A program made the translations under genes and the position numbers. Of a stretch of 39,213 nt of DNA, positions 1 through 38,582 are shown piece by piece. The stretch is from a virus (taxonomy: Duplodnaviria > Heunggongvirae > Uroviricota > Caudoviricetes). Every line of letters begins with the position of its first letter. Position 1 is the stretch's first letter. The DNA lies in IMG/VR virus record IMGVR_UViG_2562617057_000005; one strand, 5' to 3'. The notes beneath the pieces were generated by a model that was not told the origin of the DNA, made no database searches, and worked only from the letters and a program-made list of their open reading frames with translations.

Positions 1-1440
<1,440 letters not shown>

Positions 1441-2911: not shown

Positions 2912-3298
2912 TTAATCCCGGCTGTCATCCGGTTCATCATCGTCTTCGAATAACTGCCCCTGCAACCGGCTGATTTCTTCCTTTCTTACGCGCTTCACCA
3001 GGTTGTAAATCCAGGGAACTGAAACCCTGAATCTGCGGGACAGTTCGTGGTGGTTACGTCCGTTAAACGCCTCATAGATTTCACGGTCACGCTGGCTTAT
3101 CTTCCATCTCATCCCCATAGGAAAATAAACGTTTTGCCCGCCCCAGACCTGCATCATGCGGTTCGCGACGGCCTGACCAATCTGGTCGGCAACTTCGGGC
3201 TCAATATCAATAATCTCGCGAACGGTCTCAGAGGTATGCTGTGCCAGCTCCACCAGGAGTTCCGGCCCTTTACTTCGAAACTGATTCAGGTCGCTCAT
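2912..3298 (-). CDS. mor: Mor/C-family transcriptional activator (middle operon regulator-like)
   Basis: 128 aa; the segment GGQNVYFP...EIYEAFNGRNHHELSRRFRVS...YNLVKRVRK parallels Mu Mor (GGGQVYIP...FNGRN...). GGGAG ribosome-binding site upstream. Confidence 0.8.
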   Translation of the reverse strand: MSDLNQFRSKGPELLVELAQHTSETVREIIDIEPEVADQIGQAVANRMMQVWGGQNVYFPMGMRWKISQRDREIYEAFNGRNHHELSRRFRVSVPWIYNLVKRVRKEEISRLQGQLFEDDDEPDDSRD

Positions 3299-3722
3299 GT
3301 TTTACTCCCGCAGCTCTGTGCTGCCACTTCTTCAGTTTCTCAATAACACTGCTTGCCTGTTCAGTATTGAGCCAGCGCAGGGCGCTGATGCCCGTTTCCC
3401 GCTTGATCCACCGCGCTAATGCATTTTCTGAACGGTCACGAACAATGCCGGCAGCAGCCATTTCAAGCCATAGCGCACGGATTTTCCTGGACTGCGGATG
3501 GTTATCCAGCGGTAAACCGGAGCTGGCTTTTCCGGCAGGCTTAACGCGAAAGCCTTTCCTTTTCATGGATTCCAGCACGCAGTTTAGTTGTGTGGTATCC
3601 ATTCCTTTGGTTGAGGCTTTACCGGTCAGCCCCTGTAACATCTGGCGGTAGGTGTCTTCATCCATACCCAGTTCATTACGGGCAATATGAATGAGCTGGA
3701 TAAGACGTTGTTTAGTCATCAT
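3270..3722 (-). CDS. gemA: GemA-like regulatory protein (DUF1018 family)
   Basis: N-terminal KQRLIQLIHIARNELGMDEDTYRQMLQGLTGK pattern typical of Mu GemA-like proteins. Start placed at the first ATG of an ATG-ATG pair with AAGGAG upstream; the track ORF extends to 3761. Confidence 0.7.
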   Translation of the reverse strand: MMTKQRLIQLIHIARNELGMDEDTYRQMLQGLTGKASTKGMDTTQLNCVLESMKRKGFRVKPAGKASSGLPLDNHPQSRKIRALWLEMAAAGIVRDRSENALARWIKRETGISALRWLNTEQASSVIEKLKKWQHRAAGVKHERPESVSK

Positions 3723-3927
3723 CGTTGCTCCTTTTACCTGCGCCACCGATATAATCGACATATAAAGGAAGCGCCACAGGCCAGCACAGGAACATCACCG
3801 ACCAGCTAATCCAGTAGCTGGCACCACTGTAACGTGAATAAAACCCTGAACGGCGGTGCAGTTCAGCAGTACACCAACCGACAAAACAATACCAGAACAG
3901 GGCACATACAACAGATTCAGCAGTCAT
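3712..3927 (-). CDS. hypothetical small membrane protein (about 71 aa)
   Basis: Internal ATG of the 3712..4083 track ORF, with a G-rich ribosome-binding site. Hydrophobic segments (VVCALFWYCFVGW, WSVMFLCWPVALPLYV). Overlaps neighbours by about 11 nt. Confidence 0.4.
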   Translation of the reverse strand: MTAESVVCALFWYCFVGWCTAELHRRSGFYSRYSGASYWISWSVMFLCWPVALPLYVDYIGGAGKRSNDDD

Positions 3928-4147: not shown

Positions 4148-4827
4148 CTGGCCTCCAGTTTCTGTTGTTCCTGCCCACTGACCGGGCGGTGCAGTCTGAC
4201 GTTCTGCCCTTCACGAAACCCCGCATAGCGCGAGGCGTCGCCATTGCGACTTCTTCCCGGTTTACGCGCCCTGGTGGTTTGCGTTTGCGGGTATTTATGT
4301 TCCAGCCACTGCTGCATCAGTTCACGTTCGTCATCGGTCAGGGCGAAGGACTGTATTTCACTGATAACGGCCAGCACCCAGCCTTCAGCAAACTGGTCAC
4401 CACGGCTGGTACGGGTGGCAGTTTTTATTCTTTTGTTCTGTGCGCTGATATATTGCTGACGCGCCTTTTTCAACTGGCGGGCCAGCACCTCCCAGGTGTA
4501 CGCAGCCAGTGCGGCCCGTTCCCGGTTGCCGTAGAACCCCACACCCGGATATGTGCCGGGGTGAATGATGGAGTTAACACCAAATGCCTCGCGGATGATG
4601 TTCATCAGGCCTGGCATGTAGCGCGGTGGACGGAGGCTGCCTGTCGGCCAGTAGTGACTGATGGTTTCATCAATATCACTCATGGCTATGTCGGAATGTG
4701 TGATGCCGTGAACATCCATCAGTTTACGGGCACGGCGCAGTGCAAGAGCGGCCTCGTGCGGGTTGCCGGATGCAGCCAGCGCCAGCAACTTTTTCAGTTT
4801 CTCAATGTGTTTATTCTGATCTGTCAT
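4144..4827 (-). CDS. DUF2786-like prophage early protein
   Basis: 227 aa; N-terminal IEKLKKLLALAASGNPHEAALALRRARKLM motif as seen in DUF2786 proteins of Mu-like prophages (family assignment from memory). Confidence 0.7.
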   Translation of the reverse strand: MTDQNKHIEKLKKLLALAASGNPHEAALALRRARKLMDVHGITHSDIAMSDIDETISHYWPTGSLRPPRYMPGLMNIIREAFGVNSIIHPGTYPGVGFYGNRERAALAAYTWEVLARQLKKARQQYISAQNKRIKTATRTSRGDQFAEGWVLAVISEIQSFALTDDERELMQQWLEHKYPQTQTTRARKPGRSRNGDASRYAGFREGQNVRLHRPVSGQEQQKLEAR

Positions 4828-4905
4828 TGTTCAGTATCTCCGGTATTTTTCTGCCGTTTCCATGCCCGGACAGCGTCGGACAGCTCTTTCAGGCTGTATG
4901 CTGCT

Positions 4906-5040
4906 TTAAGCTTTTCCCATAACCACTGTGTTGTTATGTGCATCAGCAGGGCAGCCAGGGCTGCCCCCCGTACTGAGGCATGTCGCCAGGCCAGTAAGAA
5001 TCAGTGTCCATGCGGTGATTTCCCTGAGTATGTCAGCCAT
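4906..5040 (-). CDS. hypothetical 44-aa protein with signal/lipobox-like N-terminus
   Basis: Not in the ORF track (under 60 aa). ATG with GGGAGG 6 nt upstream, directly after the stop of the MazG-like gene. Translation MADILREITAWTLILTGLATC... Coordinates by eye. Confidence 0.3.
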   Translation of the reverse strand: MADILREITAWTLILTGLATCLSTGGSPGCPADAHNNTVVMGKA

Positions 5041-5054
5041 TGAATGCCTCCCGG

Positions 5055-5351
5055 TTACTCGTTCGTGTAAATCACGCCCAGTCGTGCAGCCAGACGTTCC
5101 AGTTTTTTCTGTTTGTGGAAGTCAATCAGCCGGTCCATCCCCTGAAGGCGCAGTTGCTCTGTCATGATTTCCACGTCTGCCAGCTCTGCCGCGAGGTCAC
5201 TTTCGCTGCCCTGTCCGTTCAGATTGCGGGCAGCACTGGCCGCCAGTTCAGCGGCCTCTTCTGTCAGTTTCAGGGCCTGTGCGTCCGGCCCGAAACGCTG
5301 CAGGGCCAGACGGTAGAGGGCGGTGCGGGTGAGTTCGGTGTTTCGTGTCAT
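5055..5351 (-). CDS. MazG-like nucleotide pyrophosphohydrolase-fold protein (putative)
   Basis: 98 aa with an EEAAEL ... ELADVEIMTEQL arrangement resembling the MazG/HisE EExxE...ExxD signature. Confidence 0.5.
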   Translation of the reverse strand: MTRNTELTRTALYRLALQRFGPDAQALKLTEEAAELAASAARNLNGQGSESDLAAELADVEIMTEQLRLQGMDRLIDFHKQKKLERLAARLGVIYTNE

Positions 5352-5360
5352 GCCGCGCCC

Positions 5361-5633
5361 TCAGTGCTTCCGGCTGACGGTGATGTGCAGGCCGCCTTCT
5401 GCAGTGGTTTCCATCCGGTACGGCACCTCATGCTCTGCCGTGTGGGTGAGTGTGTTCACCAGTACCTGCAGGGCAGCCGCCTTTCCGTTGGTCGCCACAA
5501 TGGCCTGAGCGGCCATGCTGATTAGCGCCGTCAGGACGTGCTTCACATCGGTGAGGTCGCGGTATTCACACTCGTTGACATAGTGTTCAACAAGGGTTCG
5601 GGTGCGCTGTCGTGCTTCCTGTGGGGTAATCAT
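5361..5633 (-). CDS. hypothetical early protein (90 aa)
   Basis: ORF in the tightly packed leftward early operon; no recognisable motif. Confidence 0.5.
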   Translation of the reverse strand: MITPQEARQRTRTLVEHYVNECEYRDLTDVKHVLTALISMAAQAIVATNGKAAALQVLVNTLTHTAEHEVPYRMETTAEGGLHITVSRKH

Positions 5634-5824
5634 TGCGAGTCCTCCCTGTCAGGGCGGGAGAATTCCATGACGGGCACGTCCGCCGAAAAATGCTGGCTGC
5701 AGTACGGACAGACCAGGGTGACGCGCACTGCAGGTACGTGGTACTTACCGGACATCACGGCGATGGCGCTGTGAAAACGCAGGGCTGTTATATCCCTCTC
5801 GCACTGAATACATTTAAATATCAT
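5630..5824 (-). CDS. putative zinc-ribbon protein (64 aa)
   Basis: Two CxxC pairs (CIQC and CPYC); overlaps neighbour by 4 nt. Confidence 0.5.
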   Translation of the reverse strand: MIFKCIQCERDITALRFHSAIAVMSGKYHVPAVRVTLVCPYCSQHFSADVPVMEFSRPDREDSQ

Positions 5825-5921
5825 GATTTAATTCTCCTCTGTTTCCGGCGTGCAGAAGCCCACGGCGCTGACGCCGGAATAAAAAAGAAAATGTTTTTAT
5901 TAAATAATTAACGTGGTGTGT

Positions 5922-6452
5922 TTACTGCACATCCTGCTCAAAAGGAATTATTGAAAAATCCTCAATGTCACTTTTTATGGTAATACCGGGAATATTTTTC
6001 ACGGCGTCCTTTTCATTCAGGATAGCGTCTTTATTTATTTCCTCTTTTACACGAATAAAGCGCTCAAGCCCCAGACGTCTCAGTAGTTCAATAACATTAT
6101 CCGCTCCGCGAATGCTGACTGACGGCGGGCGGTTTCGCCACTGCACCTCGCCGGTGGTGAGGTTAGCAAACTTCACCTTCCCGTTGCCGGTCAGTTCATC
6201 ACGGTGTGCCTCACACCATGTCTGGATACCGGACTGCAGTTCGGCCATGCGTTTTTTCAGGCTCTCGGTGAGCGGGGCATAACGTGCGGTGATGTCGCCA
6301 ATGGCGTCATTCATTTCTGTTTCAGCCCTGACCAGTTCACGTTGTGCGTCACCGAGCAGTCTGATTCCCTCAATGACCTCTTCACGAGTCCCCGGCACCC
6401 AGAGTGCTGCTGCGGCCTTGATACGTTTTGCCCCTTTTGTACTTTTTGCCAT
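5922..6452 (-). CDS. gam: Gam-like host-nuclease inhibitor / DNA-end-binding protein
   Basis: 176 aa; matches Mu Gam along its length as I remember it (AKRIK...AAA, ETEMNDAI, WCEA(N/H)RDELT, PPSVSIRG, GLxRFIR, GITxKSxIEDFSIIPFEQ). Confidence 0.9.
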   Translation of the reverse strand: MAKSTKGAKRIKAAAALWVPGTREEVIEGIRLLGDAQRELVRAETEMNDAIGDITARYAPLTESLKKRMAELQSGIQTWCEAHRDELTGNGKVKFANLTTGEVQWRNRPPSVSIRGADNVIELLRRLGLERFIRVKEEINKDAILNEKDAVKNIPGITIKSDIEDFSIIPFEQDVQ

Positions 6453-6479
6453 ATTTTATGATTTCTCCGGTTGTGCTGA

Positions 6480-6749
6480 TTACCACAAAGATTCCGGCCA
6501 CACGACGCGACAGCCGTGCAGTTCGAAAACGCCCTGACGGAAATATCCCCTGTGGTCATGTCCGGTATACAGATAACAGGCCTTTCCCTGCTCAAGCATG
6601 CGCATGCAATGCGCACTCCGGGAAACGCGGATGACAGGTTTGTTACCCCTGATGGTGATGCTTTGTACATCCGTGTTCGTCGCCTTAAGTGCCATAATGG
6701 CCGACTGCACTTTGTTAATCTGCTGGCTGATAACTGTGATGGATTTCAT
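6480..6749 (-). CDS. hypothetical protein (89 aa), directly downstream of the B-like gene
   Basis: ORF at the position occupied by kil-type genes in Mu; Cys/His-rich C-terminal half. Confidence 0.5.
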   Translation of the reverse strand: MKSITVISQQINKVQSAIMALKATNTDVQSITIRGNKPVIRVSRSAHCMRMLEQGKACYLYTGHDHRGYFRQGVFELHGCRVVWPESLW

Positions 6750-6751
6750 TA

Positions 6752-7918
6752 TTAAACCCCTTTGACAACGTCAGCGTTGACCTGTGGAACCCCGATTTCA
6801 GCAGCCAGATTCATGGCGGCTATTACCAGGTTACTGACGGCCAGCGGATACAGCAGGCTGACCCTGTTTTTACGGTGACTTCCCGGATTGCTCAGGCGGG
6901 CACGTATGGCATCCACTGCGCCGGCGTCCATAATGTCCGTCAGTTGTTTACCGGCCCGTTGCAGTTTGAACGTCAGAAACTCTTCAAGGTGATTGTCCAG
7001 AGGCAGAAGTTCGACCACCTCACAGCGCTGAACGACTTCACGGACTTCCATATTGCGTTCAGACAGTTTTGTCGCCAGTTCCGGCTGGCCAATCAGCACG
7101 ATGGACAGCAGTTTTTTGAAACCGGATTCCAGCTCAAAAAAGCGTTTGAGGTGTTTCAGTGTCGGAACGGGCAGACTGTGGGCCTCCTCAATCACCAGAA
7201 CGTGGCTGAACCCCGCCTGGCTGCTGTCTTTCAGGACGCGATGCAGCTGGCGAAAGCGGGCGTCCTGACTGCGTCTGATGCTTTCCAGTGGTGCGATGGT
7301 ACTGATAATGGCTTCGGCAATTGCTGCTGCCTTCAGGGTTTTCCCTTTCACATCGTTGTCTTCCATAGCGATGATGTATGGCTCGATAACAATCACCGGC
7401 GCATTCTCGCGGTTGATACGTTCAGTCAGGTCACGGCGCAGCGTGGATTTACCCGCACCGGACTCACCGATGACAGCCATAAACCCACCATGACGGGCTG
7501 TCTGGTACAGCGCCTCACGCACGTAGCGAATGTCCGGGGTGGTGAACACATCATCAGAACCCTGCATGGCTTCATCGGCGAACGGGTCACGGAAAAGACC
7601 AAACGCTTTTTTGGTTGCCGGGAATAACACCTGTTTTTTGAGTAACATGTTCTCTTCCTCACTGAGGTTCGTTTTATCTGTGGTACCCGCTGTACGGGGC
7701 GTGGCCGCGCCCTGTACAGCATCAAAACTCTTCGTTGTATCAATCCCCTGAGTTTCCAGCCAGGACGCAAGACGCCGGCGTACTTCTCCGGGACTGGTGC
7801 GGGGCCACGCGTTATGATTCACAATCTGGGCCAGCGTGGCCTCAGAAACATCGACGGCTCTCGCCACCACCGCCTGTGGAATACGGGCCTCTTTCAGTTG
7901 CTGCTTCAGTACCAGCAT
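6752..7918 (-). CDS. MuB-like transposition ATPase (AAA+), N-terminal HTH
   Basis: Walker A GESGAGKS and Walker B-like VLVIEEAH. The track ORF starts at a TTG at 7945; I place the start at the ATG at 7918, which has GAGGAGGG upstream and lies 10 nt after the transposase stop. Confidence 0.9.
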   Translation of the reverse strand: MLVLKQQLKEARIPQAVVARAVDVSEATLAQIVNHNAWPRTSPGEVRRRLASWLETQGIDTTKSFDAVQGAATPRTAGTTDKTNLSEEENMLLKKQVLFPATKKAFGLFRDPFADEAMQGSDDVFTTPDIRYVREALYQTARHGGFMAVIGESGAGKSTLRRDLTERINRENAPVIVIEPYIIAMEDNDVKGKTLKAAAIAEAIISTIAPLESIRRSQDARFRQLHRVLKDSSQAGFSHVLVIEEAHSLPVPTLKHLKRFFELESGFKKLLSIVLIGQPELATKLSERNMEVREVVQRCEVVELLPLDNHLEEFLTFKLQRAGKQLTDIMDAGAVDAIRARLSNPGSHRKNRVSLLYPLAVSNLVIAAMNLAAEIGVPQVNADVVKGV

Positions 7919-7928
7919 GTTTCCCTCC

Positions 7929-9698
7929 TCAGTTGCCGTTAACAATGCTGATAACGCTGCTGCGGGCCGGCGTGGTCAGCGTGGCCATGACTTCATCCAG
8001 TGCGGCTTCCGGTACGCCGTCCGGGTACTGTGCCGTTAACTGGCGGTAATGTTCCGGCGTCCAGGTAAGGCCGTCGGCGCTGAACTTATCGCGCAGGGCT
8101 TTCGCGGCCTCCACATGAGTCATGGGACGTTGTTCAGTGCGCGGCCCGCGTACGTCAGAGGCCTGACCGCGCTTCGGTATACAGGCCGGAAGCGTGGTGT
8201 CATCGATATGTTTATACGGGTCAAGCCGCCCGCCGAACGGCAGCGCCTTCGCCTTGCGTGCAGCAGCTGCATCTGCGGCGTTGTCTGTACCGGTGACCAG
8301 CGCTTCGGTTTCTTTTGCCGCCGCCTGCGCCGGTGTTTCCGGCAGGGTTTTGTAACTTTCGCCAAATACCGCCGCGCTTTCAGCAAAGCCAAACTCGTTC
8401 TTTCTGACCTCTTCGACCAGGAAGAACGTCTCGTGGCCGTCCTCACCGGTCAGAACCACCTGTGCCACATCGCTGCGCCACGGGTTACGGGTAATCATCA
8501 GTTTTTCACCGACCAGTACGCCCGGTACCGTTGATACGTCAAATTCAGTGCCCCGGAACGAGACACGAAGTTTTGGCGTGACTTTGCGGAGTTCTGGTGC
8601 CGCCACAGCCAGTTCACGGCATACCTCAACGGAAGGCGCTTTTTTCAACTGGTCAGCAGTAATCTTCAGCCAGATATCCGTGCGGGTTTTACCGTGGCGG
8701 CTGTGAACAGCCGTGGCGTTAAAGTGGCTGCGCCATTTTGCGGCCAGCGCGTTGAGTTCTTCCAGACTGTGAACCGGCCGGAACTTCAGACCCGGCTCCA
8801 GCCTGCGTTCGATAATGTCACGCGCCTTTTCCACCTGTCCGGTGGCGCGGGCGTTATGCGGCTTGTGCGCTATCAGGTCGATGCCCAGTGAGCGGCACAT
8901 GTTTTTCGTCATACCCGCGGTGTTTGCCGAGCCGGGGTCGAGATAGAGTATTTTCGGCACGCCGTGCAGCACGTCTGCGCCGCCACGCTCCTGCATGGCG
9001 TTGATAAGCACAGAACACAGGTTCTCACCGGATTCCGCACCCGTCACATACTCAACGTAAATCCAGCCGCTGGCATGGTCGGTAATCTCGTAACTCCACA
9101 CGCGGTCACTGGCGATACGGGCAAGATTAGCGGGTTTGTTCTTGTAGAACTTCGCGCTGTCCATCACCTGCAGCCCTTTGTGTCCATTGCTCAGGTAGTA
9201 AAGCGTGCAGAGAGAGGCATCAATCTGCCAGACATGATTGGGATGCAGGCTGGCCACTTCGGTATGCGGCGCAGGGGCATCCAGTTGTTCCGGGTGCAGG
9301 CCATAGTTACGCAGGGCACGACTGATGGCATCTTCGGACAACGGGAAAAACTCACCGGTGGTTTCATCTGTTCTGCCTGCGGAGATAAAGCCGTTAGCCC
9401 GCAGGGTTTCCACTGCATCCGCGATGGAATAGAGACGCTTACCGTTCTTGCGGGTGGCCTCACGCAGTGTGGCAGATATCAGCGCGGCTTCGTCGCGGGT
9501 CAGGGTGCTGCGTCCGGCATCGGCGCGTTTTTTGCGTTTATCAGTCACAGAGACCTCCTTCAGCCTGCGCAGCAGAGTGGCGCGGGACATGCCAAGTTCA
9601 GCACAGGCAGCGTCGTATACTGCACCGCGCTTACCATGCCCCGCGTCACGTGCCGCGCGGGCTGTTTCAACCAGTTTTTCAGTCAGTGCCGGGGTCAT
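7929..9698 (-). CDS. Mu-type DDE transposase (MuA-like)
   Basis: 589 aa; N-terminal HTH region and an integrase/rve-like core (WQIDAS ... YLDPGSANTAG), immediately upstream of the B-like ATPase as in Mu. Confidence 0.9.
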   Translation of the reverse strand: MTPALTEKLVETARAARDAGHGKRGAVYDAACAELGMSRATLLRRLKEVSVTDKRKKRADAGRSTLTRDEAALISATLREATRKNGKRLYSIADAVETLRANGFISAGRTDETTGEFFPLSEDAISRALRNYGLHPEQLDAPAPHTEVASLHPNHVWQIDASLCTLYYLSNGHKGLQVMDSAKFYKNKPANLARIASDRVWSYEITDHASGWIYVEYVTGAESGENLCSVLINAMQERGGADVLHGVPKILYLDPGSANTAGMTKNMCRSLGIDLIAHKPHNARATGQVEKARDIIERRLEPGLKFRPVHSLEELNALAAKWRSHFNATAVHSRHGKTRTDIWLKITADQLKKAPSVEVCRELAVAAPELRKVTPKLRVSFRGTEFDVSTVPGVLVGEKLMITRNPWRSDVAQVVLTGEDGHETFFLVEEVRKNEFGFAESAAVFGESYKTLPETPAQAAAKETEALVTGTDNAADAAAARKAKALPFGGRLDPYKHIDDTTLPACIPKRGQASDVRGPRTEQRPMTHVEAAKALRDKFSADGLTWTPEHYRQLTAQYPDGVPEAALDEVMATLTTPARSSVISIVNGN

Positions 9699-9713
9699 AG
9701 TTCGTTTTCCCTG

Positions 9714-10031
9714 TTATCCGATTCTGGCGGCAATTTTTCTGGCGAGGTCGCACAGTGTTTCGCCATCGCAGGTTTTCACCACGGTATTTACCGGTTGCGG
9801 TGCAACTACCGGGCGTAATGCTGACTGATTCTGCAGACGTCTTATCTGCTGCATCAGCATCACCTCCATCGTCAGTACAAACGGGTGCGTCTCCTGTGCG
9901 GGTACGCAGATTTCACCGGAAGGAGTCACCACGCGGAAACCCTGCACCATTTCCGGTACCAGATTACACAGTGCGTGCCCCAGCGCCTCCGGGCTGTCCA
10001 TCAGGATATTTTGTGTGTTATTCGTATTCAT
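9714..10031 (-). CDS. hypothetical early protein (105 aa)
   Basis: ATG overlaps the stop of the upstream gene (TAATG); GGAGG upstream. Confidence 0.55.
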   Translation of the reverse strand: MNTNNTQNILMDSPEALGHALCNLVPEMVQGFRVVTPSGEICVPAQETHPFVLTMEVMLMQQIRRLQNQSALRPVVAPQPVNTVVKTCDGETLCDLARKIAARIG

Positions 10032-10948
10032 TACTGCATGTCCTCCGGGCAGTTGATTTCAGGTTCCGGCTCGGTCAGCCAGGCAGGGATATCGTTACCT
10101 GATGGTGCGGCATCAAGGTCAAACGTCTCACGCAATGCATGAACACTGCGTTCAATCTGACAGACCAGACCGGCCATGAAATCTCTGGGGGTATCAATCA
10201 TGTGTTCAGCACAATATGCGCACAGTGTCTCAAACGCGCCGGACAGCCGGACGGCGACAGCAGATTCCGCCTCAACCGCTAATGCCGTCACTTCCGCCCG
10301 CAGCTTCTTCACCTCTTCATCAGGCTCAGGTGGCTGAATACGGGATTTCTTCTCCAGTCTGGTGGAGAGTGAGTCGATTTTTTCATTTTTGTCGGCGAGA
10401 ACACGCTGTTGTGCTGCGTTGGTTTCGCGCGCTTCACGCAGGGCCTGGCGAAGTTCGCGTACTGACATGCGATCAACGTCGTCAAGCGTCAGATCGGCAA
10501 CTGTGCCGCCGTCGGCCAGTTCGGCAAGGTCTTCATCATCCTCTAACATCAATTCGTACAGTTTTGATCTTCCCAAATGCGAAAACGTTTTCGCTTTTGA
10601 TGTCAGCTCTGGAGATAAAAACTTCAGAGCAGCTTGGGCCATTTTTTGGGCTATTCGTGGCTCAAGGTTCAGCTGTTCTTTGACGATTTGTACGTATTCT
10701 CCATGAGGTTCATTTTCCTTCAGGATAACCAAACGTTTACCTGCCTCCAGCATAGCCTCCGCACTCTGGTCCATATAAAACCGAGTTTCGTGAACGATAC
10801 GATCACGTTCATAGGGCAGGCCGTCGCCGAACTGCTGCATGATCTCCATACGATGCTGTGTCATGACATTCAGGCTGACGTTGAGATCATCAGACAGTGG
10901 CACCTCAGCATTCAGATCAGTGGTCATTGGTGATTTTGTGCGTCCCAT
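10031..10948 (-). CDS. hypothetical early protein (305 aa), acidic central region with predicted coiled coil
   Basis: ORF with AAGGAG ribosome-binding site; acidic stretch EDDEDLAELADGG and heptad-like charged region. No family recognised. Confidence 0.65.
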   Translation of the reverse strand: MGRTKSPMTTDLNAEVPLSDDLNVSLNVMTQHRMEIMQQFGDGLPYERDRIVHETRFYMDQSAEAMLEAGKRLVILKENEPHGEYVQIVKEQLNLEPRIAQKMAQAALKFLSPELTSKAKTFSHLGRSKLYELMLEDDEDLAELADGGTVADLTLDDVDRMSVRELRQALREARETNAAQQRVLADKNEKIDSLSTRLEKKSRIQPPEPDEEVKKLRAEVTALAVEAESAVAVRLSGAFETLCAYCAEHMIDTPRDFMAGLVCQIERSVHALRETFDLDAAPSGNDIPAWLTEPEPEINCPEDMQ

Positions 10949-10958
10949 TGATTACTCC

Positions 10959-11279
10959 TTACAAACGACTACCTGAAATAACACGTTGGTTGATTTCGTT
11001 AATACGATCCTGCGCTCGTGCCATCTCGTTACTGTGGGCCATGGCGATCTGTAGTAACTGGATGCCAGGAGCAAAACGTCCGTTCTCCAGTTTCAGGGCC
11101 AGTCCTTCTTCGATGAGGGTGTTGAGTGCTCGGTTGATGTTTGCCGGTGACTCGTGCAGTGCTGCCGCCAGTTCACCGTTAGAAATACCGTTCAGGGCAT
11201 GACCGCGCAGCGCTTTGAGTACCCGGAGGATGCGACTGCCGGAGCTTGAAACATTCGTCTTACTCATCTTCATCTGCAT
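10959..11279 (-). CDS. putative winged-HTH DNA-binding protein (106 aa)
   Basis: ILRVLKALRGHALNGISNGELAAALHESPANINRALNTLIEEGL resembles MarR/IclR-type wHTH N-termini. Confidence 0.55.
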   Translation of the reverse strand: MQMKMSKTNVSSSGSRILRVLKALRGHALNGISNGELAAALHESPANINRALNTLIEEGLALKLENGRFAPGIQLLQIAMAHSNEMARAQDRINEINQRVISGSRL

Positions 11280-11325: not shown

Positions 11326-11514
11326 TTAGGCTGCCTGAGCCGTTGATTTCAGTCCCAGTTTCACGGCGATTTCATGGGATTTACCGTAACGGGCTTTGGT
11401 CTGCCCGTTGAGAACGCGGTATACCTCATTGCGGTTGTAGCCGTTCTCTTCTGCCCAGCGGGTGAAAGTGATCCCGCGCTGGCGGAAGAGAGCTTTGACT
11501 TGTTCTGCAGTCAT
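11326..11514 (-). CDS. Ner-like small DNA-binding regulator (Cro analogue)
   Basis: 62 aa, first gene of the leftward operon, divergent from the repressor; AAGGAG ribosome-binding site; pattern resembles the Mu Ner/Nlp family. Confidence 0.65.
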   Translation of the reverse strand: MTAEQVKALFRQRGITFTRWAEENGYNRNEVYRVLNGQTKARYGKSHEIAVKLGLKSTAQAA

Positions 11515-11614: not shown

Positions 11615-11953
11615 ATGATCGGGTTACGTATTAAAGAAGAAAGAGAGCGTCTATCTCTTACACAGCAAGGGTTGGCTGATGCTATAGGTGTGGCAAAGAG
11701 AACTTTCATTGATTGGGAAAAAGATCGCACTTCTCCTACTGCAGTGCAGTTATCTGCACTATCAGAAATCGGTGTAGATGTTTTGTATGTAGTTACTGGG
11801 GTGCGGAATCAGCCTGTTGTTGCACCTTATGTGTCACAAGAAAAAAAAGAGTTAATGGATGCATTCGACGAAATGAGCCCCGAACAACGGAGGGCAATTC
11901 TTGAAGTTGGCAAAGTCTTCATTCAACCCAAACCAAGCAAACTCGCAGGCTGA
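11615..11953 (+). CDS. XRE-family HTH repressor (immunity repressor candidate)
   Basis: Internal ATG of track ORF 11462..11953. LSLTQQGLADAIGVAKRTFIDWEKDRTSP is a classic XRE/Cro-C1 HTH. Divergent from the early operon. Confidence 0.75.
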   Translation: MIGLRIKEERERLSLTQQGLADAIGVAKRTFIDWEKDRTSPTAVQLSALSEIGVDVLYVVTGVRNQPVVAPYVSQEKKELMDAFDEMSPEQRRAILEVGKVFIQPKPSKLAG

Positions 11954-12039
11954 TTCTGACCTGGACACAAAGGACAGGTGGTTGATCTGGACGCTTTCAG
12001 AAAGCGCCGTCAGTAGCATGGCAGAAATAGGCTGGCTTA

Positions 12040-12070
12040 CCGGAAAGCATTGCGCTTTCCGGTTCTGTTT
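12040..12070 (+). terminator. putative rho-independent terminator at the repressor/dam convergent junction
   Basis: Stem CCGGAAAGC / GCTTTCCGG with a 5-nt loop, followed by TTCTGTTT; ends at the dam stop codon. Confidence 0.5.
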
Positions 12071-12834
12071 CAGAAGTTGCAGATTACCAGTTCACGGCGC
12101 GGCGTGGGTTTACCTGCCAGACTGTAGTTTATATTCACCGTCTGTATATTCAGTTCAGTGAACACCTCTCGCATCTGTGGGATATCGTTCACCGAAATTA
12201 TCATCTTTCCTTTGATACACCGGGCCAGCTCTGCCAGTCGCGAGTAGTTCCCTTCAGGAAAATCCACACCATAGCCTTCCGTACCCAGGTACGGTGGGTC
12301 GCAGTAGAACAGCGTGTGCGGATGGTCATAACGCTCAATGCACTGTTGCCAGTCCATGTGTTCTATCACCGTTCTGGAAAGTCGCAGGTGTGCCGCTGAG
12401 AGCTCTTCCTCAATACGCAGCAGGTTGAAGCGTGGCGGGGATGTGGTGGAGGTGCCGAAACTATGCTCTGCCACCTTGCCACCAAACGCCTGCTTCTGGA
12501 GGTAGTAGAACCGTGCTGCACGCTGGATATCCGTCAGGGTTTCCTCCGGGGTGATCTGCAGCCATTTGTAGATCTGCCGGCTAACCAGCGCCCATTTGAA
12601 CTGGCGGACAAATTCCTCCAGGTGATGTTTTACCACCCGATACAGATTCACCAGCTCACCGTTGATGTCGTTAATGACTTCGATCCTGCCGGGTGACTTA
12701 AGAAAATAGAGCGCTGCTGCCCCACAGAACGGCTCCACATAACATTCATGCGCCGGAAACAGCGGCAGAATGTGTTTTGCCAGGCGGCGTTTGCCCCCAA
12801 TCCATGGAACGATGGGTAATGTCTGCATTTTCAT
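12070..12834 (-). CDS. DNA adenine methyltransferase, Dam family (orphan, phage-encoded)
   Basis: 254 aa; N-terminus WIGGKRRL...ECYVEPFCGAAALYF parallels E. coli Dam (WAGGK...ECLVEPFVGAGSVF); catalytic DPPY present. Confidence 0.9.
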   Translation of the reverse strand: MKMQTLPIVPWIGGKRRLAKHILPLFPAHECYVEPFCGAAALYFLKSPGRIEVINDINGELVNLYRVVKHHLEEFVRQFKWALVSRQIYKWLQITPEETLTDIQRAARFYYLQKQAFGGKVAEHSFGTSTTSPPRFNLLRIEEELSAAHLRLSRTVIEHMDWQQCIERYDHPHTLFYCDPPYLGTEGYGVDFPEGNYSRLAELARCIKGKMIISVNDIPQMREVFTELNIQTVNINYSLAGKPTPRRELVICNF

Positions 12835-12881
12835 AATCTGTAAGCCTTTTACAATTATTAAAAATATGGCAGGCTAGTCTG

Positions 12882-12893
12882 GTCTCGCGAGAC
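12882..12893. promoter_or_regulatory. perfect 12-bp palindrome GTCTCGCGAGAC in the dam / 89-aa divergent intergenic region
   Basis: Read directly from the sequence; flanked by partial AGTC/GACT symmetry; lies in the 234-bp gap between two divergent genes. Confidence 0.4.
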
Positions 12894-13068
12894 TGACTGA
12901 ACCCTGGTCGGCTCACAGCGCATTCCTGTGGGACGATGGCCAGCCCGGTGGGTCCGAAGCACCGGGCTGGTCGTTCTTTCATGATGCGGCAGGGATAGTG
13001 GGATTTCTGTTGAAGTGGTTTAAGAGTTTGTTGCATGCGGGTAAAGCACCGGAATACCGGAGGTGACC

Positions 13069-13338
13069 ATGAAGGTAACATCTGTCGAAGAGTACATTGA
13101 AATCTGGAGAAAGATGAAAAAACGTGAGGGCAGCCTGTTAGCCAGAGCTGCGCCCTCTATGATACCAGCAGTACTGGGGAATGCAGTAGTCACTCTGATT
13201 AGCCAGAACCAGGCAGTGACAACAGAAAGTATTATCAACTATCTGGAAGAGACAGCTCAGAAATCTCAGGGTACTTTACCTGATAGCTGGTACCAAACGG
13301 CACTGGATTTCCTGAAGGATTCAGTTTCGCAGCAATAA
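13069..13338 (+). CDS. hypothetical 89-aa protein
   Basis: ATG at 13069 with GGAGGTG 5 nt upstream (the track ORF begins at a GTG at 13063). Its 3' end overlaps the convergent 84-aa ORF by about 100 bp. Confidence 0.5.
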   Translation: MKVTSVEEYIEIWRKMKKREGSLLARAAPSMIPAVLGNAVVTLISQNQAVTTESIINYLEETAQKSQGTLPDSWYQTALDFLKDSVSQQ

Positions 13339-13489
13339 TTTCTGTTGCGAAAACCAGCAGGCACAGCCAGTCTTCATCTGCTGCGGTGTATGCAGCATCA
13401 GACATGCACCGCTTCAGTGCTTCCTCGTAAGGTTCATCTACATGGCGGATAAACTGCCATTTTCCGTTTTCTGCCTGTTTCCAGCTCAT
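13235..13489 (-). CDS. hypothetical 84-aa protein
   Basis: ATG with GAGGA 7 nt upstream, downstream of the P-loop gene; C-terminal 30 aa are low-complexity and overlap the + strand ORF. Confidence 0.4.
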   Translation of the reverse strand: MSWKQAENGKWQFIRHVDEPYEEALKRCMSDAAYTAADEDWLCLLVFATEIIAAKLNPSGNPVPFGTSYQVKYPEISELSLPDS

Positions 13490-13564
13490 GGGTATATCCT
13501 CATTCTGCTACCGATGGTAATGACGGGAAAACTTTACTGTTTTCACCTGTTGATGTGGGTGTCT

Positions 13565-13990
13565 TCAGGTTTTGTCCTGGCCCACAATCTTGCGCAATTC
13601 CGCCATCAGGAGTTCCTGGTCGTAAATCGTCATCAGTGCCGCAATGGTGGCATGCAGTGCGTCGGGCAGTGTCCATGGGTTCTGGCCTGTGGGGCATATA
13701 ACATCCAGCAGTGCATTCGTCCGGAGAATGCATCCCTCGCTGTATGACATCGGAGTTTTTTCTGTGTATTCCTCCAGTCGGATAAGTGTACCTGCCCGTG
13801 GTTTCTGCCATGTGCTCAGATCATCCCCACTCATACAGCGCTCACCGTCCACGTCTGCGGCATCGACAATGACGCTGCCTCCGAATTCCTGTTTCACCAC
13901 TTCTTCTATCCGCGCCAGTACGTAACTTTTACCGCTGCCCACAGGACCGGACACGGTGACAGTGATGACCGGATTCGGTGTCTGCGTCAC
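13565..13990 (-). CDS. small P-loop NTPase / kinase-like protein (141 aa)
   Basis: GTG start with AGGAG 8 nt upstream. Walker A GPVGSGKS and Walker B-like VIVDAADVD. Divergent from the late operon. Confidence 0.65.
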   Translation of the reverse strand: MTQTPNPVITVTVSGPVGSGKSYVLARIEEVVKQEFGGSVIVDAADVDGERCMSGDDLSTWQKPRAGTLIRLEEYTEKTPMSYSEGCILRTNALLDVICPTGQNPWTLPDALHATIAALMTIYDQELLMAELRKIVGQDKT

Positions 13991-14120
13991 ATCGTATTCT
14001 CCTCTGTGAATAATTCATCGTTTATCCTGCACATCCCGTATCCCCGGCTCTCTTAACGCGCTTTAAAATCCTTTGCGCCCTGTATTTGTGATGCTGTCTC
14101 CACCAGACAAGGAGACATTC

Positions 14121-35010: not shown

Positions 35011-36456
35011 ATGGCAAATCTACCCGAAACCCCGCAGTGGGAAAACGGCATCTACCAGATTGAGGTCTCTGACCCCGTTCTGGGCGGACCTGACGGAATT
35101 TCTAACCGTCAGGGTAAACAACTGGCCAGCCGCACGCTGTACCTGAAGCAACAGGTTGAAAAAGGCGGGGCTGACCTTGCGAAACACATCGCGGCAGCAG
35201 ACCCGCATACCCGGTACGCACAGAAAGCCAGTCCGGCATTCACCGGCACACCAACAGCACCTACACCTGCAAATGGCGATAACAGCAAAAAGCTGGCGAC
35301 AACGGAGTTTGTGGCCAAAGCACTTGCGGCACTTGCAGGCAGCGCCCCTGAGACACTGGATACGCTTAAAGAGCTGGCTGACGCTCTCGGTAATGATCCA
35401 AACTTTGCGACTACGGTACTGAACAAGCTGGCGGAAAAGCTGGCTAAAGACCAGAACGGCGCAGATATTCCTGATCCTGCGCTGTTTGTCAAAAACCTTG
35501 GTTTACAGGAAGCGATAAATCAGGCTTCTGGCGCATTACAGAAAAACCAGAACGGCGCAGATATTCCGGGGAAAGATACCTTCACCAAAAATATTGGTGC
35601 CTGCCGCGCATATAGCGCATGGCTGAATATTGGTGGCGATAGTCAGGTCTGGACAACCGCGCAATTTATTTCGTGGCTGGAGAGTCAGGGAGCATTTAAC
35701 CATCCTTACTGGATGTGCAAAGGCTCATGGGCTTATGCAAATAATAAGGTCATTACAGATACAGGTTGCGGAAATATTTGTCTTGCAGGTGCTGTGGTGG
35801 AAGTTATTGGCACTCGCGGCGCAATGACCATACGCGTTACCACGCCGGGCACGTCCAGCGGTGGCGGAATTACTAACGCTCAATTCACTTATATTAATCA
35901 TGGTGATGCTTACGCTCCTGGCTGGCGACGAGACTACAACACGAAAAATCAACAACCTGCATTTGCTTTAGGGCAAACAGGAAGCACTGTCGGAAATGAT
36001 AAAGCTGTTGGCTGGAACTGGAATAGCGGGGTCTATAACGCAAACATTGGTGGCGCATCGACATTAATCCTCCACTTCAATATGAATACGGGGAGCTGCC
36101 CTGCTGTACAGTTCCGCGTGAATTACAGGAACGGCGGTATTTTTTATCGTTCAGCGCGTGATGGTTATGGCTTTGAAGCTGACTGGTCAGAGTTTTACAC
36201 CACAACCCGCAAACCCTCTGCGGGAGATGTTGGTGCATATACGCAGGCAGAATGTAACTCAAGGTTTATTACAGGTATTCGCCTTGGTGGTCTGTTATCT
36301 GTTCAGACATGGAATGGTCCCGGATGGTATGACAGGTCAGGTTATGTCGTTACGGGTTCAGTTAACGGAAACCGTGATGAATTAATTGATACAACTCAGG
36401 CAAGGCCAGTTCAGTATTGCATTAATGGGACGTGGTATAACGCGGGGAGTATTTAA
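35011..36456 (+). CDS. tail fibre protein (Mu S-like): constant N-terminal part plus variable C-terminal part inside the invertible segment
   Basis: 481 aa; crosses the gix-like site at about 35490-35511; C-terminal motif INGTWYNAGSI is shared with the inverted alternative copy ([12 protein letters not shown]). Confidence 0.9.
   Translation: MANLPETPQWENGIYQIEVSDPVLGGPDGISNRQGKQLASRTLYLKQQVEKGGADLAKHIAAADPHTRYAQKASPAFTGTPTAPTPANGDNSKKLATTEFVAKALAALAGSAPETLDTLKELADALGNDPNFATTVLNKLAEKLAKDQNGADIPDPALFVKNLGLQEAINQASGALQKNQNGADIPGKDTFTKNIGACRAYSAWLNIGGDSQVWTTAQFISWLESQGAFNHPYWMCKGSWAYANNKVITDTGCGNICLAGAVVEVIGTRGAMTIRVTTPGTSSGGGITNAQFTYINHGDAYAPGWRRDYNTKNQQPAFALGQTGSTVGNDKAVGWNWNSGVYNANIGGASTLILHFNMNTGSCPAVQFRVNYRNGGIFYRSARDGYGFEADWSEFYTTTRKPSAGDVGAYTQAECNSRFITGIRLGGLLSVQTWNGPGWYDRSGYVVTGSVNGNRDELIDTTQARPVQYCINGTWYNAGSI
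35451..35471 (+). repeat. 21-bp perfect direct repeat, copy 1 (CCAGAACGGCGCAGATATTCC)
   Basis: Identical to 35547..35567; encodes QNGADIP in the fibre gene. Confidence 0.6.
35490..35511. repeat. gix-like recombination site, left (CAAAAACCTTGGTTTACAGGAA)
   Basis: Inverted repeat of the site at about 38561-38582 (20 of 22 positions); resembles the Mu gix core (TTCCTGTAAACCGAGGTTTTGGATAA) as I remember it. Confidence 0.7.
35547..35567 (+). repeat. 21-bp perfect direct repeat, copy 2
   Basis: Identical to 35451..35471; lies inside the invertible segment, copy 1 outside. Confidence 0.6.
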
Positions 36457-36458
36457 CG

Positions 36459-36992
36459 ATGATGCACTTAAAAAACATTTCTGCTGGTAATCCTGAAACA
36501 AAAGAGCAATACCAGCTAACAAAGCAATTTAACATCAAATGGCTTTATACAGAGGATGGGAAAAACTGGTATGAGGAGCAAAAGAACTTTCAGCCTGATA
36601 CGTTGAAAATGGTCTATGACCACAACGGCGTTATTATTTGTATTGAAAAGGATGTTTCAGCAATTAATCCGGAAGGCGCAAGCGTCGTTGAGGTTCCTGA
36701 TATTACAGCAAATCGCCGGGCTGATATTTCAGGTAAATGGATGTTCAAAGATGGCGTAGTGATAAAGCGAACTTATACCGGGGAAGAGCAGAGGCAACAG
36801 GCGGAAAATGAAAAGCAAAGCCTGCTACAGCTCGTCAGGGATAAAACCCAGCTGTGGGACTCACAGCTACAGCTGGGCATCATTTCCGCCGGGAATAAGC
36901 AGAAATTAACCGAGTGGATGCTCTACGCGCAGAAGGTCGAATCCACAGACACCTCCAGTCTGCCAGTAACGTTTCCCGAACAACCAGAATGA
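36459..36992 (+). CDS. tail fibre assembly protein (Mu U-like)
   Basis: 177 aa; homologous to the inverted 37021..37548 gene (both begin MMHLKNI.AGN). Confidence 0.85.
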   Translation: MMHLKNISAGNPETKEQYQLTKQFNIKWLYTEDGKNWYEEQKNFQPDTLKMVYDHNGVIICIEKDVSAINPEGASVVEVPDITANRRADISGKWMFKDGVVIKRTYTGEEQRQQAENEKQSLLQLVRDKTQLWDSQLQLGIISAGNKQKLTEWMLYAQKVESTDTSSLPVTFPEQPE

Positions 36993-36996
36993 AACA

Positions 36997-37016
36997 AGGC
37001 CCGATATCGGGCCTTA
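36997..37016. terminator. bidirectional rho-independent terminator between convergent fibre-assembly genes
   Basis: Perfect 20-bp palindrome AAGGCCCGATATCGGGCCTT followed by AATTTTT; A-rich on the other side. Confidence 0.6.
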
Positions 37017-37020
37017 ATTT

Positions 37021-37548
37021 TTACTCAGGCTTTTGTGGCCATTCTGGCTTTGCCGTATCCACACGGCTGACCAGAACACTGTAGCGTTCCCATGCTTCCA
37101 GTCGTGTGCGTTCCTCGTCCGTCGCCATATTCAGCCTGACAGCGCGTTCCAGCGGCTGGATGACTGATTCAGCTTCGGAAAGCAATGCGGCCTTTTGTGA
37201 TTCGGCCTGTTGTTGCTGTTCGTCAGCCGTATAAATCCGTTTAACCACAGCTCCGTCCTTAAACATCCACTTACCGGAATCATCAGCACGACGATTAGCT
37301 GTAATATCAGGAACCTCAACGACGCTATAACCTTCAGGGTTAAGCGTGGAGGCATCTTTGGTGATGGCGACAATAATATTATTTGCATCGTAAACAATCT
37401 TTATTGTGTCTGGCTGAAAGTTCTTCACTTCCTCATACCAGTTTTTTCCGTCCTCAGAGTAAAGCCAGATGACTCCGTGCTTCTTTGTTAACTCATACTG
37501 CTCCACTGTTTTAGCATTACCTGCTTTTATGTTCTTTAAGTGCATCAT
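37021..37548 (-). CDS. alternative tail fibre assembly protein (Mu U'-like)
   Basis: Start at the [10 protein letters not shown] Met pair of track ORF 37021..37581; paralogue of 36459..36992. Confidence 0.8.
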
Positions 37549-37549
37549 A

Positions 37550-38560
37550 TTAAATACTCGCCACATTATACCAGGTGCCATTTATATACTTTTGCACTGG
37601 CCTGTAATGAACGCCTGCAATATTATCGGCAGAGTTTTTTCCGGTATCCTGTACGTTAATCCCCGTCAGTACATAGCCTGACGGGCACTGAAAATTCCAT
37701 GTTTGCCAGTTGTTCACTCCATAATATTGCTGTGAACCAAGCCGGACATCTTTCACATATCTGGAATCAAAATTGCCATAGTTGCCGGGAATAACTTGCG
37801 AGCCGCAAAGCCAGTTCCCGTTATTATCCATGTACGCCTGACCATCGGTGCCATTGGCTGTCCTTGAGTTATTAATCATGTAGATGCCAAATTGCTTATT
37901 TCCCAGACCGCCAATCATAAATTTGCGGTCGGCATGGTCCTGACGGAGCAAAGCCTGAGCACCATCAGTGGATACCGCATTACGGCCCAGAATAACATTC
38001 TGGTCACGCATATGAATCCACATGCCGGTACTACTGTTAATTGCAAAACGGTTTGCAAATATATCCCCTGTAACATCAAGACCATGCCCCATGCTTATCC
38101 GGCCAGTTCTGAGATTAAGCGTAAAGGGGCGTAGTGGCCCTATATTACCATTTTCCCCTTCATTCTCTCGTGTAGGGATGATATGCAGGCATTCTTCAGA
38201 ACGACGAAAAATGGCACCAAAAGATGAATTAAATATCCTCAGTGCATTGACTGTCGATATTTTCACTTCACTGCTGAAAAGGGCTTCAACAAGAACAGAC
38301 AAAGCATTCCATTTAAGATTCATCAGGTCTTTAGGCCGGGTGCCAATGATGCGGTGTCTCCATTTGAAATATTCATTGCCGTTGTTGCCTGTTTCAAACC
38401 ACATGTAGGAATCGGTGTCTGCATCCGAATTATTTTTAAACCCAATCTTTGCCCAGTCAGTATTTCGAATCCAGGCAAGGATTGAGTCGTTTTCAAAAGT
38501 AAGTCCACCGGACAAGGTATCGCCTGTCTTTTGGACAGCGTTATCAGCCTTGTTTACCGT
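37550..38560 (-). CDS. alternative tail-fibre variable C-terminal segment (Mu S'v-like); no own start, expressed after inversion
   Basis: Open frame runs through the right gix-like site in the same phase as the fibre gene through the left site (both read GLQE across the core); ends [12 protein letters not shown]. Confidence 0.8.
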
Positions 38561-38582
38561 TTCCTGTAAACCAACGTTTTCG
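38561..38582. repeat. gix-like recombination site, right (TTCCTGTAAACCAACGTTTTCG)
   Basis: Inverted copy of the left site. Confidence 0.7.

Follow-up and report, generated by a model that had tools for sequence, protein, structure and literature searches.

What does an adenine methyltransferase gene with no partner nuclease do between the immunity and lysis genes of a transposable prophage, which sequence would its product modify, and how is it controlled? We addressed these questions for an open reading frame (ORF) at 12070-12834(-) of the IMG/VR record IMGVR_UViG_2562617057_000005, a stretch of 39,213 nt that was analysed as a whole and is called the window below. The window represents a transposable prophage of the BcepMu-like (Bcepmuvirus-type) kind, and its left edge is host DNA. 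The ORF starts with ATG, is intact, encodes 254 amino acids (aa) and leaves no room for an in-frame upstream extension. The methylase gene as such has already been catalogued, and it is an ordinary, widespread orphan prophage methylase; what the present analysis adds is a link to com-mom-type modules and a conserved leader RNA, which is the main regulatory feature of the locus. Our best explanation, to which we give a probability of about 60%, is an active stand-alone D12 methylase that would be off in the lysogen, methylate the phage's own DNA against restriction in the lytic phase and be gated by its leader.

By profile, motif order and predicted fold, the protein is a member of the D12/alpha group (Dam superfamily) of DNA methyltransferases. 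The matches to Pfam PF02086 MethyltransfD12 (E=1.7e-28, 100.4 bits at a cut-off of 22), PHROG 56 (E=1e-99) and PADLOC MTase_II (E=1e-110) are far above chance, and TIGR00571 'dam' is passed marginally (116.4 bits at a cut-off of 114.85). The FxGxA and DPPY motifs named in the original prediction can both be read from the translation: motif I is E34-P-F-C-G-A-A-A41, with FxGxA at F36-A40, and motif IV is D179-P-P-Y182, which lies C-terminal to motif I with the target-recognition region between the two. An N-terminal similarity to E. coli Dam had been proposed as well, and indeed the sequence matches in the PDB (DpnM, 1.9e-16; E. coli Dam, 8.7e-14) are aligned from residue 8 on. The AlphaFold2 model (pLDDT 94.2, pTM 0.91) was matched by Foldseek to E. 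coli Dam (EcoDam) with a TM score of 0.80 (E ~1e-17), to DpnM with 0.78 and to T4 Dam with ~0.7. The protein thus resembles EcoDam, T4 Dam and DpnM in fold (TM 0.7-0.8), in motif order, in its DPPY and FxGxG motifs and in a beta-hairpin recognition element with an aromatic intercalator. N6-adenine methyl transfer, the activity originally proposed, is what this sequence evidence predicts.

Across 75 members of the subfamily (36-62% identity), residues G13, K15, G38, D56, E158, D170 and D179-P-P-Y182 are invariant or nearly so, with G38 and D-P-P-Y found in all 75. As these residues cover the positions of motifs I and IV, their conservation argues for a working enzyme under selection. The domain also occurs in 2-4 tandem copies in giant proteins of 1000-2500 aa (P0123, P0137, P0141, P0146, P0168, P0175, P0216, P0226 and P0264), which resemble the polyvalent anti-restriction proteins of phages and conjugative elements.

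Upstream of the ATG, ~190 bp are more conserved among the enterobacterial relatives than the coding sequence itself. This region, on which the original prediction is silent, contains a structured 5' leader of the methylase mRNA of ~145 nt (12833-12980(-)), which ends at the ATG (12834-12832) and scores 159 bits with the covariance model R1. Folding of 20 distinct enterobacterial sequences in the sense direction (MAFFT alignment, RNAalifold) gave 35 pairs, with 97% of the cells paired, compensatory changes at 7 pairs and a covariation score that none of 500 shuffles reached. The single-sequence minimum free energy fold of the window leader likewise recovers the pairing of the Shine-Dalgarno (SD) sequence (z=-3.2). 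With R1 the full-length motif was found in more than 50 phage or prophage loci (in the range L006-L093), in each case in the sense direction and up to the start codon, and among them are the loci of the 64-73%-identical methylases of other Mu-like phages. Where an operon contains com, it is the com start codon at which the motif stops. In an alignment of 54 sequences 91.9% of the cells are paired, 17 of 25 pairs show double changes, and the covariation score is 0.442, compared with 0.157 in shuffles, none of which (0 of 500) attained it, and no more than 0.067 in slid controls. This alignment was fitted to the model and hence favours structure; the independent MAFFT/RNAalifold folding of the 20 sequences agrees with it on the P1 hairpin and the SD pairing. 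The leader therefore combines a conserved structure carrying compensatory changes with a fixed position at the start codon.

The most upstream element, P1 (12940-12970), is a perfect 11-bp stem (12940-12950/12960-12970) with a 9-nt loop that folds equally well on both strands, and compensatory double changes occur at all 11 pairs among the 54 sequences. It is followed by P2 (12914-12930(-)), a CACAG-N7-CUGUG hairpin with 97.4% of the cells paired. Its loop is variable and its stem covaries to CGCAG/CUGCG, CACUG/CAGUG and CACGG/CCGUG, two pairs being double-changed in 23 and 6 sequences, respectively. Two partners are predicted for the SD region AGGCUUACAG (12838-12847(-)), whose SD AAGG lies ~10 nt before the ATG: AGCCU and, alternatively, CUGUGAGCC. 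In the first of these pairings, helix 4, the anti-SD AGCCU at 12871-12875(-) meets the SD AGGCU at 12843-12847(-); this helix is 98.8% paired in the 54 sequences, with double changes in 4 of its 5 pairs. Its 25 G:U cells and 0 A.C cells indicate that it exists in the sense RNA only. The alternative is a long-range helix CUGUGAGCC:GGCUUACAG, with CUGUGAGCC at 12910-12918(-), which is strong in the enterobacterial clade and 80% paired family-wide, and whose U-A to C-G changes are mirrored in P2. Mutually exclusive leader conformations are hinted at by these pairings; the long-range helix may be an alternative conformation only, and we do not regard it as established.

Some further elements of the leader were considered and set aside. 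A helix AGCC:GGUU (H3) in the first model was dropped family-wide, being 75% paired with as many A.C as G:U cells. The palindrome GGTCTCGCGAGACT was rejected as a repeated operator, as the window holds no other good copy of it (5 matches with at most 3 mismatches, 2.7 expected); it is the leader stem P3 and covaries to GUCAUCGAUGAC and GUUCUCGAGAAC. In a search with Rfam 15 no family reached the gathering score anywhere in the window, and 11900-13200 was free of matches even at E<=5; the leader is thus without a family-level Rfam match. For a 'D12-methyl' RNA motif, a literature search returned no paper and Rfam no match. An SD-sequestering, cis-regulatory mRNA leader is the most economical reading of the element, with a predicted effect on translation.

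The upstream element might instead primarily be the gene of an antisense (countertranscribed) small RNA on the plus strand that ends at P1 as its terminator, a view that we consider doubtful. In its favour, P1 has a terminator-like, T-rich tail on the plus strand only (TCGTTCTTTC), P1 and P2 pair equally or slightly better in the antisense direction (P1 has 27 G:U wobbles in sense and 30 in antisense), and a weak sigma-70-like site is present at 12828-12855(+). In addition, P2 and P1 of one relative, L076, match the Rfam family RF00236 ctRNA_pGA1 over its full length in antisense with 45.1 bits, at a gathering score of 45. This Burkholderia-type locus shares with the family two stem-loops and a U-tail; however, it is the only locus to reach the threshold, the family derives from a replication control RNA of Corynebacterium plasmids, and a shared shape may suffice for the match. 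No Rfam match was obtained in the window or in 20 other loci, nor was a conserved -10 element found for an antisense promoter. A purely antisense element is also at odds with the sense-only anti-SD:SD helix, with the many sense-only wobbles of the enterobacterial helices 2, 3 and 5, which include one invariant G:U, and with the strict placement of the motif, whose end always coincides with the start codon of the first gene, be it methylase or com. The two readings are compatible, in the form of a leader and a countertranscript that targets it.

Downstream, the methylase faces the immunity region of what is a temperate phage. A gene for an XRE/HTH_3 immunity-repressor-like protein (11627-11953(+); Pfam HTH_3, 1.5e-07) runs towards it and ends at 11953, while the methylase stop codon occupies 12070-12072(-), so that the convergent arrangement described in the original prediction is borne out. 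The repressor-like protein has weak matches to the NCBIfam DicA/RstR models and matches to PHROG repressor families, and alternative starts of its gene reach back to 11462. Between the two genes lies a hairpin with a perfect 10-bp stem and a 5-nt loop (12039-12063(+)), which had been taken for a terminator shared by both. The hairpin is real, yet the claim is only half right, as a T-rich tail (TCTGTTTCAG) is present on the plus, or repressor, strand only, and AAGCCAGCCUAUUUC follows the stem on the methylase strand. No A-run is found 5' of the stem, as a bidirectional terminator would require. The hairpin is hence the canonical intrinsic terminator of the repressor transcript, with a T-tail (12064-12073) that overlaps the methylase stop codon, and to the methylase transcript it could pose a structural barrier at most. 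In relatives the sequence past the methylase stop codon is non-homologous, with a strong hairpin nearly always present and in some cases a sense-strand T-tract; the recurrence of this hairpin indicates that a terminator or insulator at this place is a conserved feature of the unit. Several relatives (L007-L013) carry variable cargo between methylase and repressor on the strand of the repressor, such as a 177-aa ORF, a DUF6731 protein and a Flk_N protein, which look like lysogeny-expressed morons or defence candidates; in the window no cargo genes are found between the two.

The absence of an adjacent restriction endonuclease, as originally stated, held in searches of four libraries. The neighbouring ORFs at 13063-13338(+), 13235-13489(-), 13565-13990(-) and 11627-11953(+) gave no nuclease match in Pfam, NCBIfam, PHROGs or PADLOC. 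In syntenic relatives the methylase is constant and its flanks vary, with no nuclease family among the neighbours examined.

The methylase is 97-98% identical to those of Escherichia phage PhiKM and of ST131-type prophages. It shares 98% identity with a 254-aa DNA adenine methylase from the BcepMu-like prophage of E. coli ST131 strain EC958, which is almost certainly M.EcoMIV (EC958_1101); the equation follows from the published description of the latter as an orphan enzyme with a D12 domain in prophage Phi2. The study that describes M.EcoMIV gives it a PF02086 domain and counts more than 80 E. coli genomes with an identical copy (Forde et al. 2015, PMC4659465). In mid-log phase in LB it was transcribed significantly less than dam, single-molecule real-time (SMRT) sequencing yielded no extra or assigned methylation motif, and no recognition site was known in 2015 for homologues with more than 65% identity (PMC4659465). 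The EC958 gene shares the leader of the window gene and, like it, lies between repressor and lysis genes, while the window differs from that prophage in its methylase allele, in its insertion site beside a ClC channel gene and in the cargo between methylase and holin. M.EcoGIX, at first considered as a prophage enzyme, proved irrelevant, as the literature describes it as plasmid-borne and single-strand specific.

Homologues with 84-94% identity are annotated in Salmonella, Enterobacter, Citrobacter, Klebsiella, Serratia, Pectobacterium, Erwinia, Yersinia and Kluyvera. At every locus inspected the methylase has the lysis cassette on one side and the immunity region on the other, and the late genes are on the other strand. 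This synteny was seen in PhiKM, KP12, ST131 prophages and Klebsiella, Citrobacter and Pectobacterium-type loci, with variable cargo on one or both sides. In compact relatives the methylase is divergent from the holin gene, with ~249 bp in between.

Beyond the enterobacteria, tblastn against phage genomes found the same methylase subfamily at 58-66% identity. It is present in the Burkholderia phages phiE125, phi1026b and KS9, in the telomere phages VP882 and phiHAP-1, and in the Mu-like phages B3, Shewanella MuM16-1, Curvibacter TJ1, Acidovorax Aval, Ralstonia YO374_1 and Pseudomonas Bise/UMP151. The analogy to a com-mom module is founded on phage B3, where the methylase ORF48 is overlapped at its start by ORF47, a homologue of Com (CxxC...CPRC). 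ORF48 is 63% identical to the window protein, belongs to the same subfamily and shares the FGG[KR]...[FY]G recognition hairpin, and a weak match to the leader model lies directly 5' of the B3 com gene (E=0.029). The two loci differ in that the B3 pair, with com overlapping the methylase start, is situated among tail genes, whereas the window is without com. Among 80 IMG/VR relatives, 14 have a Com-like ORF directly upstream of the methylase, and in ~12 of the 80 loci, from relatives with 64-73% identity, the methylase ends within ~20 nt of the contig end. The Com-like ORFs encode zinc fingers of the form IRCGxCxxKLAE...IKCPRCG and are found ~175-250 nt 5' of the methylase (L040, L044-L052, L060, L062, L073). 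In the window no Com-like ORF was detected, either upstream of the methylase or elsewhere; Mor and GemA are present, mom and com are not, and the methylase is central, between immunity region and lysis cassette, rather than at the extreme right end of the genome.

By analogy to Mu, the combination of com with an end-of-contig position in the relatives suggests a Mom-like, lytic-phase role in anti-restriction. The parallel with com-mom extends to the presence of a DNA-modification gene in a transposable phage and to translational control, predicted for the window gene, with the start region held in an RNA structure (PMC3299994), and relatives of the window methylase keep Com, often at the contig end; it ends where Mom is neither a methyltransferase nor homologous and where the window gene is central with no com before it. 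Replacement of Mom by Dam-fold enzymes has a precedent in Hia5, Hin1523 and Nma1821, which take the place of mom in other Mu-like prophages; their methylation extends to nearly all adenines, and in the lysogen they are silent (Drozdz et al. 2012, PMC3299994). Like the window protein they are Dam-fold enzymes of Mu-like prophages, to which N6-methyladenine formation in place of Mom is ascribed; the relaxed specificity has been demonstrated for the Hia5 group only. The same authors noted the com-methylase arrangement of B3, stated that the activity of ORF48 'has yet to be demonstrated', and did not find ORF48 among the closest 1000 homologues of Hia5 (PMC3299994), which makes the two methylase families distinct. 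Protection from restriction, the role put forward in the original prediction, is thus the best-supported one, although its basis is the com-mom arrangement of the relatives and not the reasoning given there.

Which sequence would the enzyme recognise? The designation as a Dam-family protein holds at the superfamily level and does not extend to GATC specificity. With the E. coli Dam equivalog model NF008152 the protein fails, reaching 66.2 bits at a cut-off of 441, and its identity is 23-25% to E. coli Dam and 16-26% to the group of EcoDam, T4 Dam and DpnM. EcoDam reads the guanine of the fourth base pair chiefly through R124, and the variant R124A loses discrimination there; the third base pair is contacted by L122 and P134 and the first by K9 and Y138, with Y119 as the intercalating residue (PMC4417163). 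HMMER and hhalign both place A122 at the position of R124, in a column that is variable across the subfamily (V/D/K/A). They place K/R120 at L122, P10 at K9 and F117 at Y119, so that the aromatic intercalator is kept. P134 is aligned to S129 by hhalign or to S132 by HMMER and is S/A/T in the subfamily, and the recognition hairpin is 5 residues shorter than in EcoDam. The subfamily has a conserved signature of its own, R105, R108, F117-G-G-[KR]120 and F126-G127. The alignment within the recognition loop is uncertain, as model confidence is lowest there (pLDDT 84-87), and for this reason the loss of the GATC-reading residues weakens GATC as the target but does not exclude it. Since these residues are not conserved, the name 'Dam' is an overstatement and is unjustified beyond the superfamily. 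By our own estimate the odds are ~35-40% for GATC, ~35% for another defined motif and ~25% for relaxed specificity. In the sources consulted on the homologues phiE125 gp27, VP882 Dam and B3 ORF48 no experimental specificity was found, and for VP882 a secondary source gives 'DNA methylase' as the function only. With GATC specificity not assured, the digestion with DpnI/MboI proposed as a check could read negative even with an active enzyme.

The distribution of GATC in the phage is uneven. A stretch of 5.65 kb without any GATC (4818-10471) spans the early operon including the transposase A and B genes, where 17.4 sites would be expected (Poisson P ~3e-8). It is adjoined by 9 sites within 575 bp (10471-11046) at the promoter-proximal end of this operon. 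The same gap is kept in the ST131 prophage, where it measures 5.87 kb (L004 8204-14071). The tetranucleotide CTAG is nearly absent, with 1 site compared with 11.7 expected.

Taken as a whole, the locus would be explained as follows. The methylase would be a core gene of the enterobacterial BcepMu-like transposable prophages, essentially off in the lysogen and made in lytic development, when it would modify replicating phage DNA before packaging. Progeny would enter the next host already protected from restriction enzymes that are sensitive to adenine methylation, a task that is Mom's in phage Mu and that of unrelated or distantly related methylases in other Mu-like phages. Silence in the lysogen is deduced from EC958, as the copy with 98% identity fits M.EcoMIV, with its transcription below dam and no additional motif (PMC4659465). 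Expression would be gated after transcription by pairing of the leader anti-SD with the ribosome-binding site, P1 and P2 may be the target of a countertranscript or encode one, and the strong hairpins that bracket the gene may isolate it from the convergent repressor transcript. Several points weigh against this explanation. Lytic timing follows solely from the low transcription in the lysogen and the divergence from the lysis operon. Neither for the methylase nor for its close relatives did the literature, as far as found, contain activity data, which includes B3 ORF48 (PMC3299994), and the lack of a recognition site in 2015 for homologues above 65% identity (PMC4659465) belongs here as well. 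A methylase of narrow specificity would give only narrow protection. The clade of the window is without com, and its gene is central rather than at the right end. Finally, GATC is rarer in the phage than expected (107 sites observed, 183 expected, ratio 0.58); an enzyme protecting GATC might relax such avoidance, while for any other specificity the count is uninformative.

The strongest competitor, which we judge to be a real possibility but the less probable one, is a true GATC-specific Dam paralogue that keeps the replicating and transposing phage DNA fully methylated instead of serving broad anti-restriction. Such an enzyme would avoid MutH nicking and SeqA sequestration, serve Dam-dependent steps and block enzymes of the MboI/DpnII type in dam-negative hosts. 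The solved D12-fold structures matched by the model, EcoDam, DpnM and T4 Dam, are GATC enzymes; a further matched structure, Mcbe1 (7m6b), cannot be counted with them. TIGR00571 was just passed, the intercalator (F117 for Y119) is kept next to a conserved basic K/R120 in the hairpin, the GATC-free early operon beside a GATC cluster suggests that GATC methylation matters to the phage, and the lack of an extra motif in EC958 would also be expected if the sites were masked by host Dam (PMC4659465). The distance to the EcoDam equivalog (66 compared with 441 bits) and the changes at R124, L122, P134 and K9 in a shortened hairpin do not fit a Dam paralogue. Nor does the elaborate gating by the leader, and by Com in relatives, for which a harmless copy of a host activity would offer little reason, and the family is equally common in phages of Dam-less hosts such as Burkholderia, Pseudomonas, Ralstonia and Acinetobacter. 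The loss of GATC-reading residues and the shortened hairpin would be accommodated by a relaxed or non-GATC methylase that substitutes for Mom and gives broad protection, and whose toxicity upon mis-expression would call for tight translational control. This is consistent with the com-linked, end-of-genome slot that the family holds in many Mu-like phages, with the precedent of Hia5, Hin1523 and Nma1821 (PMC3299994), with an SD-sequestering leader conserved over more than 50 loci and with the giant tandem-domain proteins, which are compatible with diversified specificities. We nevertheless regard it as unlikely, as the argument is purely one from analogy, the ORF48 and Hia5 families are distinct, and the conserved recognition hairpin (F117-G-G-[KR], F126-G) looks more like a defined specificity than like none.

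Very improbable, by comparison, is a moron-type epigenetic regulator expressed in the lysogen, which would alter host or prophage expression or immunise the chromosome against incoming restriction-modification systems. The methylase does form a self-contained, hairpin-bracketed unit beside the immunity region, and orphan methylases have been proposed as 'molecular vaccines' (PMC4659465). The EC958 lysogen, however, transcribes the gene significantly below dam and shows no additional methylated motif (PMC4659465), the gene does not share a strand with the repressor or with the variable lysogeny cargo found behind the latter in relatives, and its SD is sequestered. Returning to the self-methylating, leader-gated enzyme, a more specific version can be formulated, which we put forward tentatively: the enterobacterial proteins would belong to a widespread family of the B3 ORF48 type with non-GATC or relaxed specificity, which stands in for Mom in Mu-like and further temperate phages and is accompanied from Burkholderia to Escherichia by a ~145-nt riboregulatory leader that abuts the start codon of the first gene of the (com-)methylase unit and maybe acts with a countertranscript.

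As a gene the methylase matters little, since orphan prophage adenine methylases are common and this one has already been named in REBASE-based work on ST131. Its recognition sequence is worth settling, because related DNA is present in ~1 in 8 complete E. coli genomes and the gene in many strains of Salmonella, Klebsiella, Citrobacter, Enterobacter and Pectobacterium, the usual assumption of GATC is not backed by the recognition loop, and methylome annotation of major pathogens would be improved. With covariation over more than 50 loci, the leader is a clean case of a phage DNA-modification gene predicted to be controlled after transcription, and it links the com-dependent and com-less versions of the module.

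The remainder of the window conforms to a transposable prophage, whose closest deposited phage is PhiKM (classed as Bcepmuvirus). The host gene at the left edge encodes a ClC chloride channel (1-1422(-); Pfam Voltage_CLC, 4e-101). The early operon on the minus strand comprises Mor (2912-3298), GemA (3270-3761), a Gam-like gene, an ExeA-type ATPase (6752-7945) and an rve-domain transposase (7929-9698). Directly downstream of gam, a 64-aa ORF with a CxxC-x30-CxxC zinc ribbon (5630-5824(-)), the only one of the CxxC...CxxC form in the window, has hypothetical proteins as its counterparts in relatives; the spacing differs from that of Com, and no Pfam family above threshold and no Com match were obtained. 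A BcepMu gp16-family DNA-binding gene of the same operon (11326-11514(-)) is divergent from the repressor-like gene. The late operon on the plus strand starts with the holin and SLT lysin genes, followed by the head and tail genes. Related DNA was found with a 2.8-kb query in 638 of 5426 complete E. coli genomes (~1 in 8), none of which covers at least 80% of the query.

At the right edge, a recombinase gene (38632-39213(+)) is 73% identical at the DNA level to an invertase-type gene beside the tail-fibre region of the ST131 prophage, and the tail-fibre region of the window (35108-38568) is without a counterpart there. The holin gene has its SD (GGAGA) inside a hairpin, UGUCUCC-N9-GGAGACA (14095-14117(+)), just 5' of its ATG at 14121. 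The dyad is also present in compact relatives (L012 3757-3782), so that the lysis gene may be translationally gated too. In these relatives, where it lies upstream of the methylase, TGTCTCC-N9-GGAGACA had been considered as a Mor site but proved to be the SD hairpin that belongs to the holin gene itself.

Between the methylase leader and the holin gene, 13022-13604 is replaced relative to the ST131 prophage. The replacement truncates a PHROG 3787 P-loop protein (13565-13990(-)) to 141 of ~242 aa and brings in two small ORFs, 13063-13338(+), which matches PHROG 2718, and 13235-13489(-). In compact relatives a single copy of TTTAAAC-N-GCGTTAA-AG is located between the divergent holin and methylase genes; the window has it twice, intact beside the holin gene (14046-14071) and degenerate beside the methylase leader (12990-13015). 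The insertion of cargo thus appears to have split an originally back-to-back promoter region of holin and methylase.

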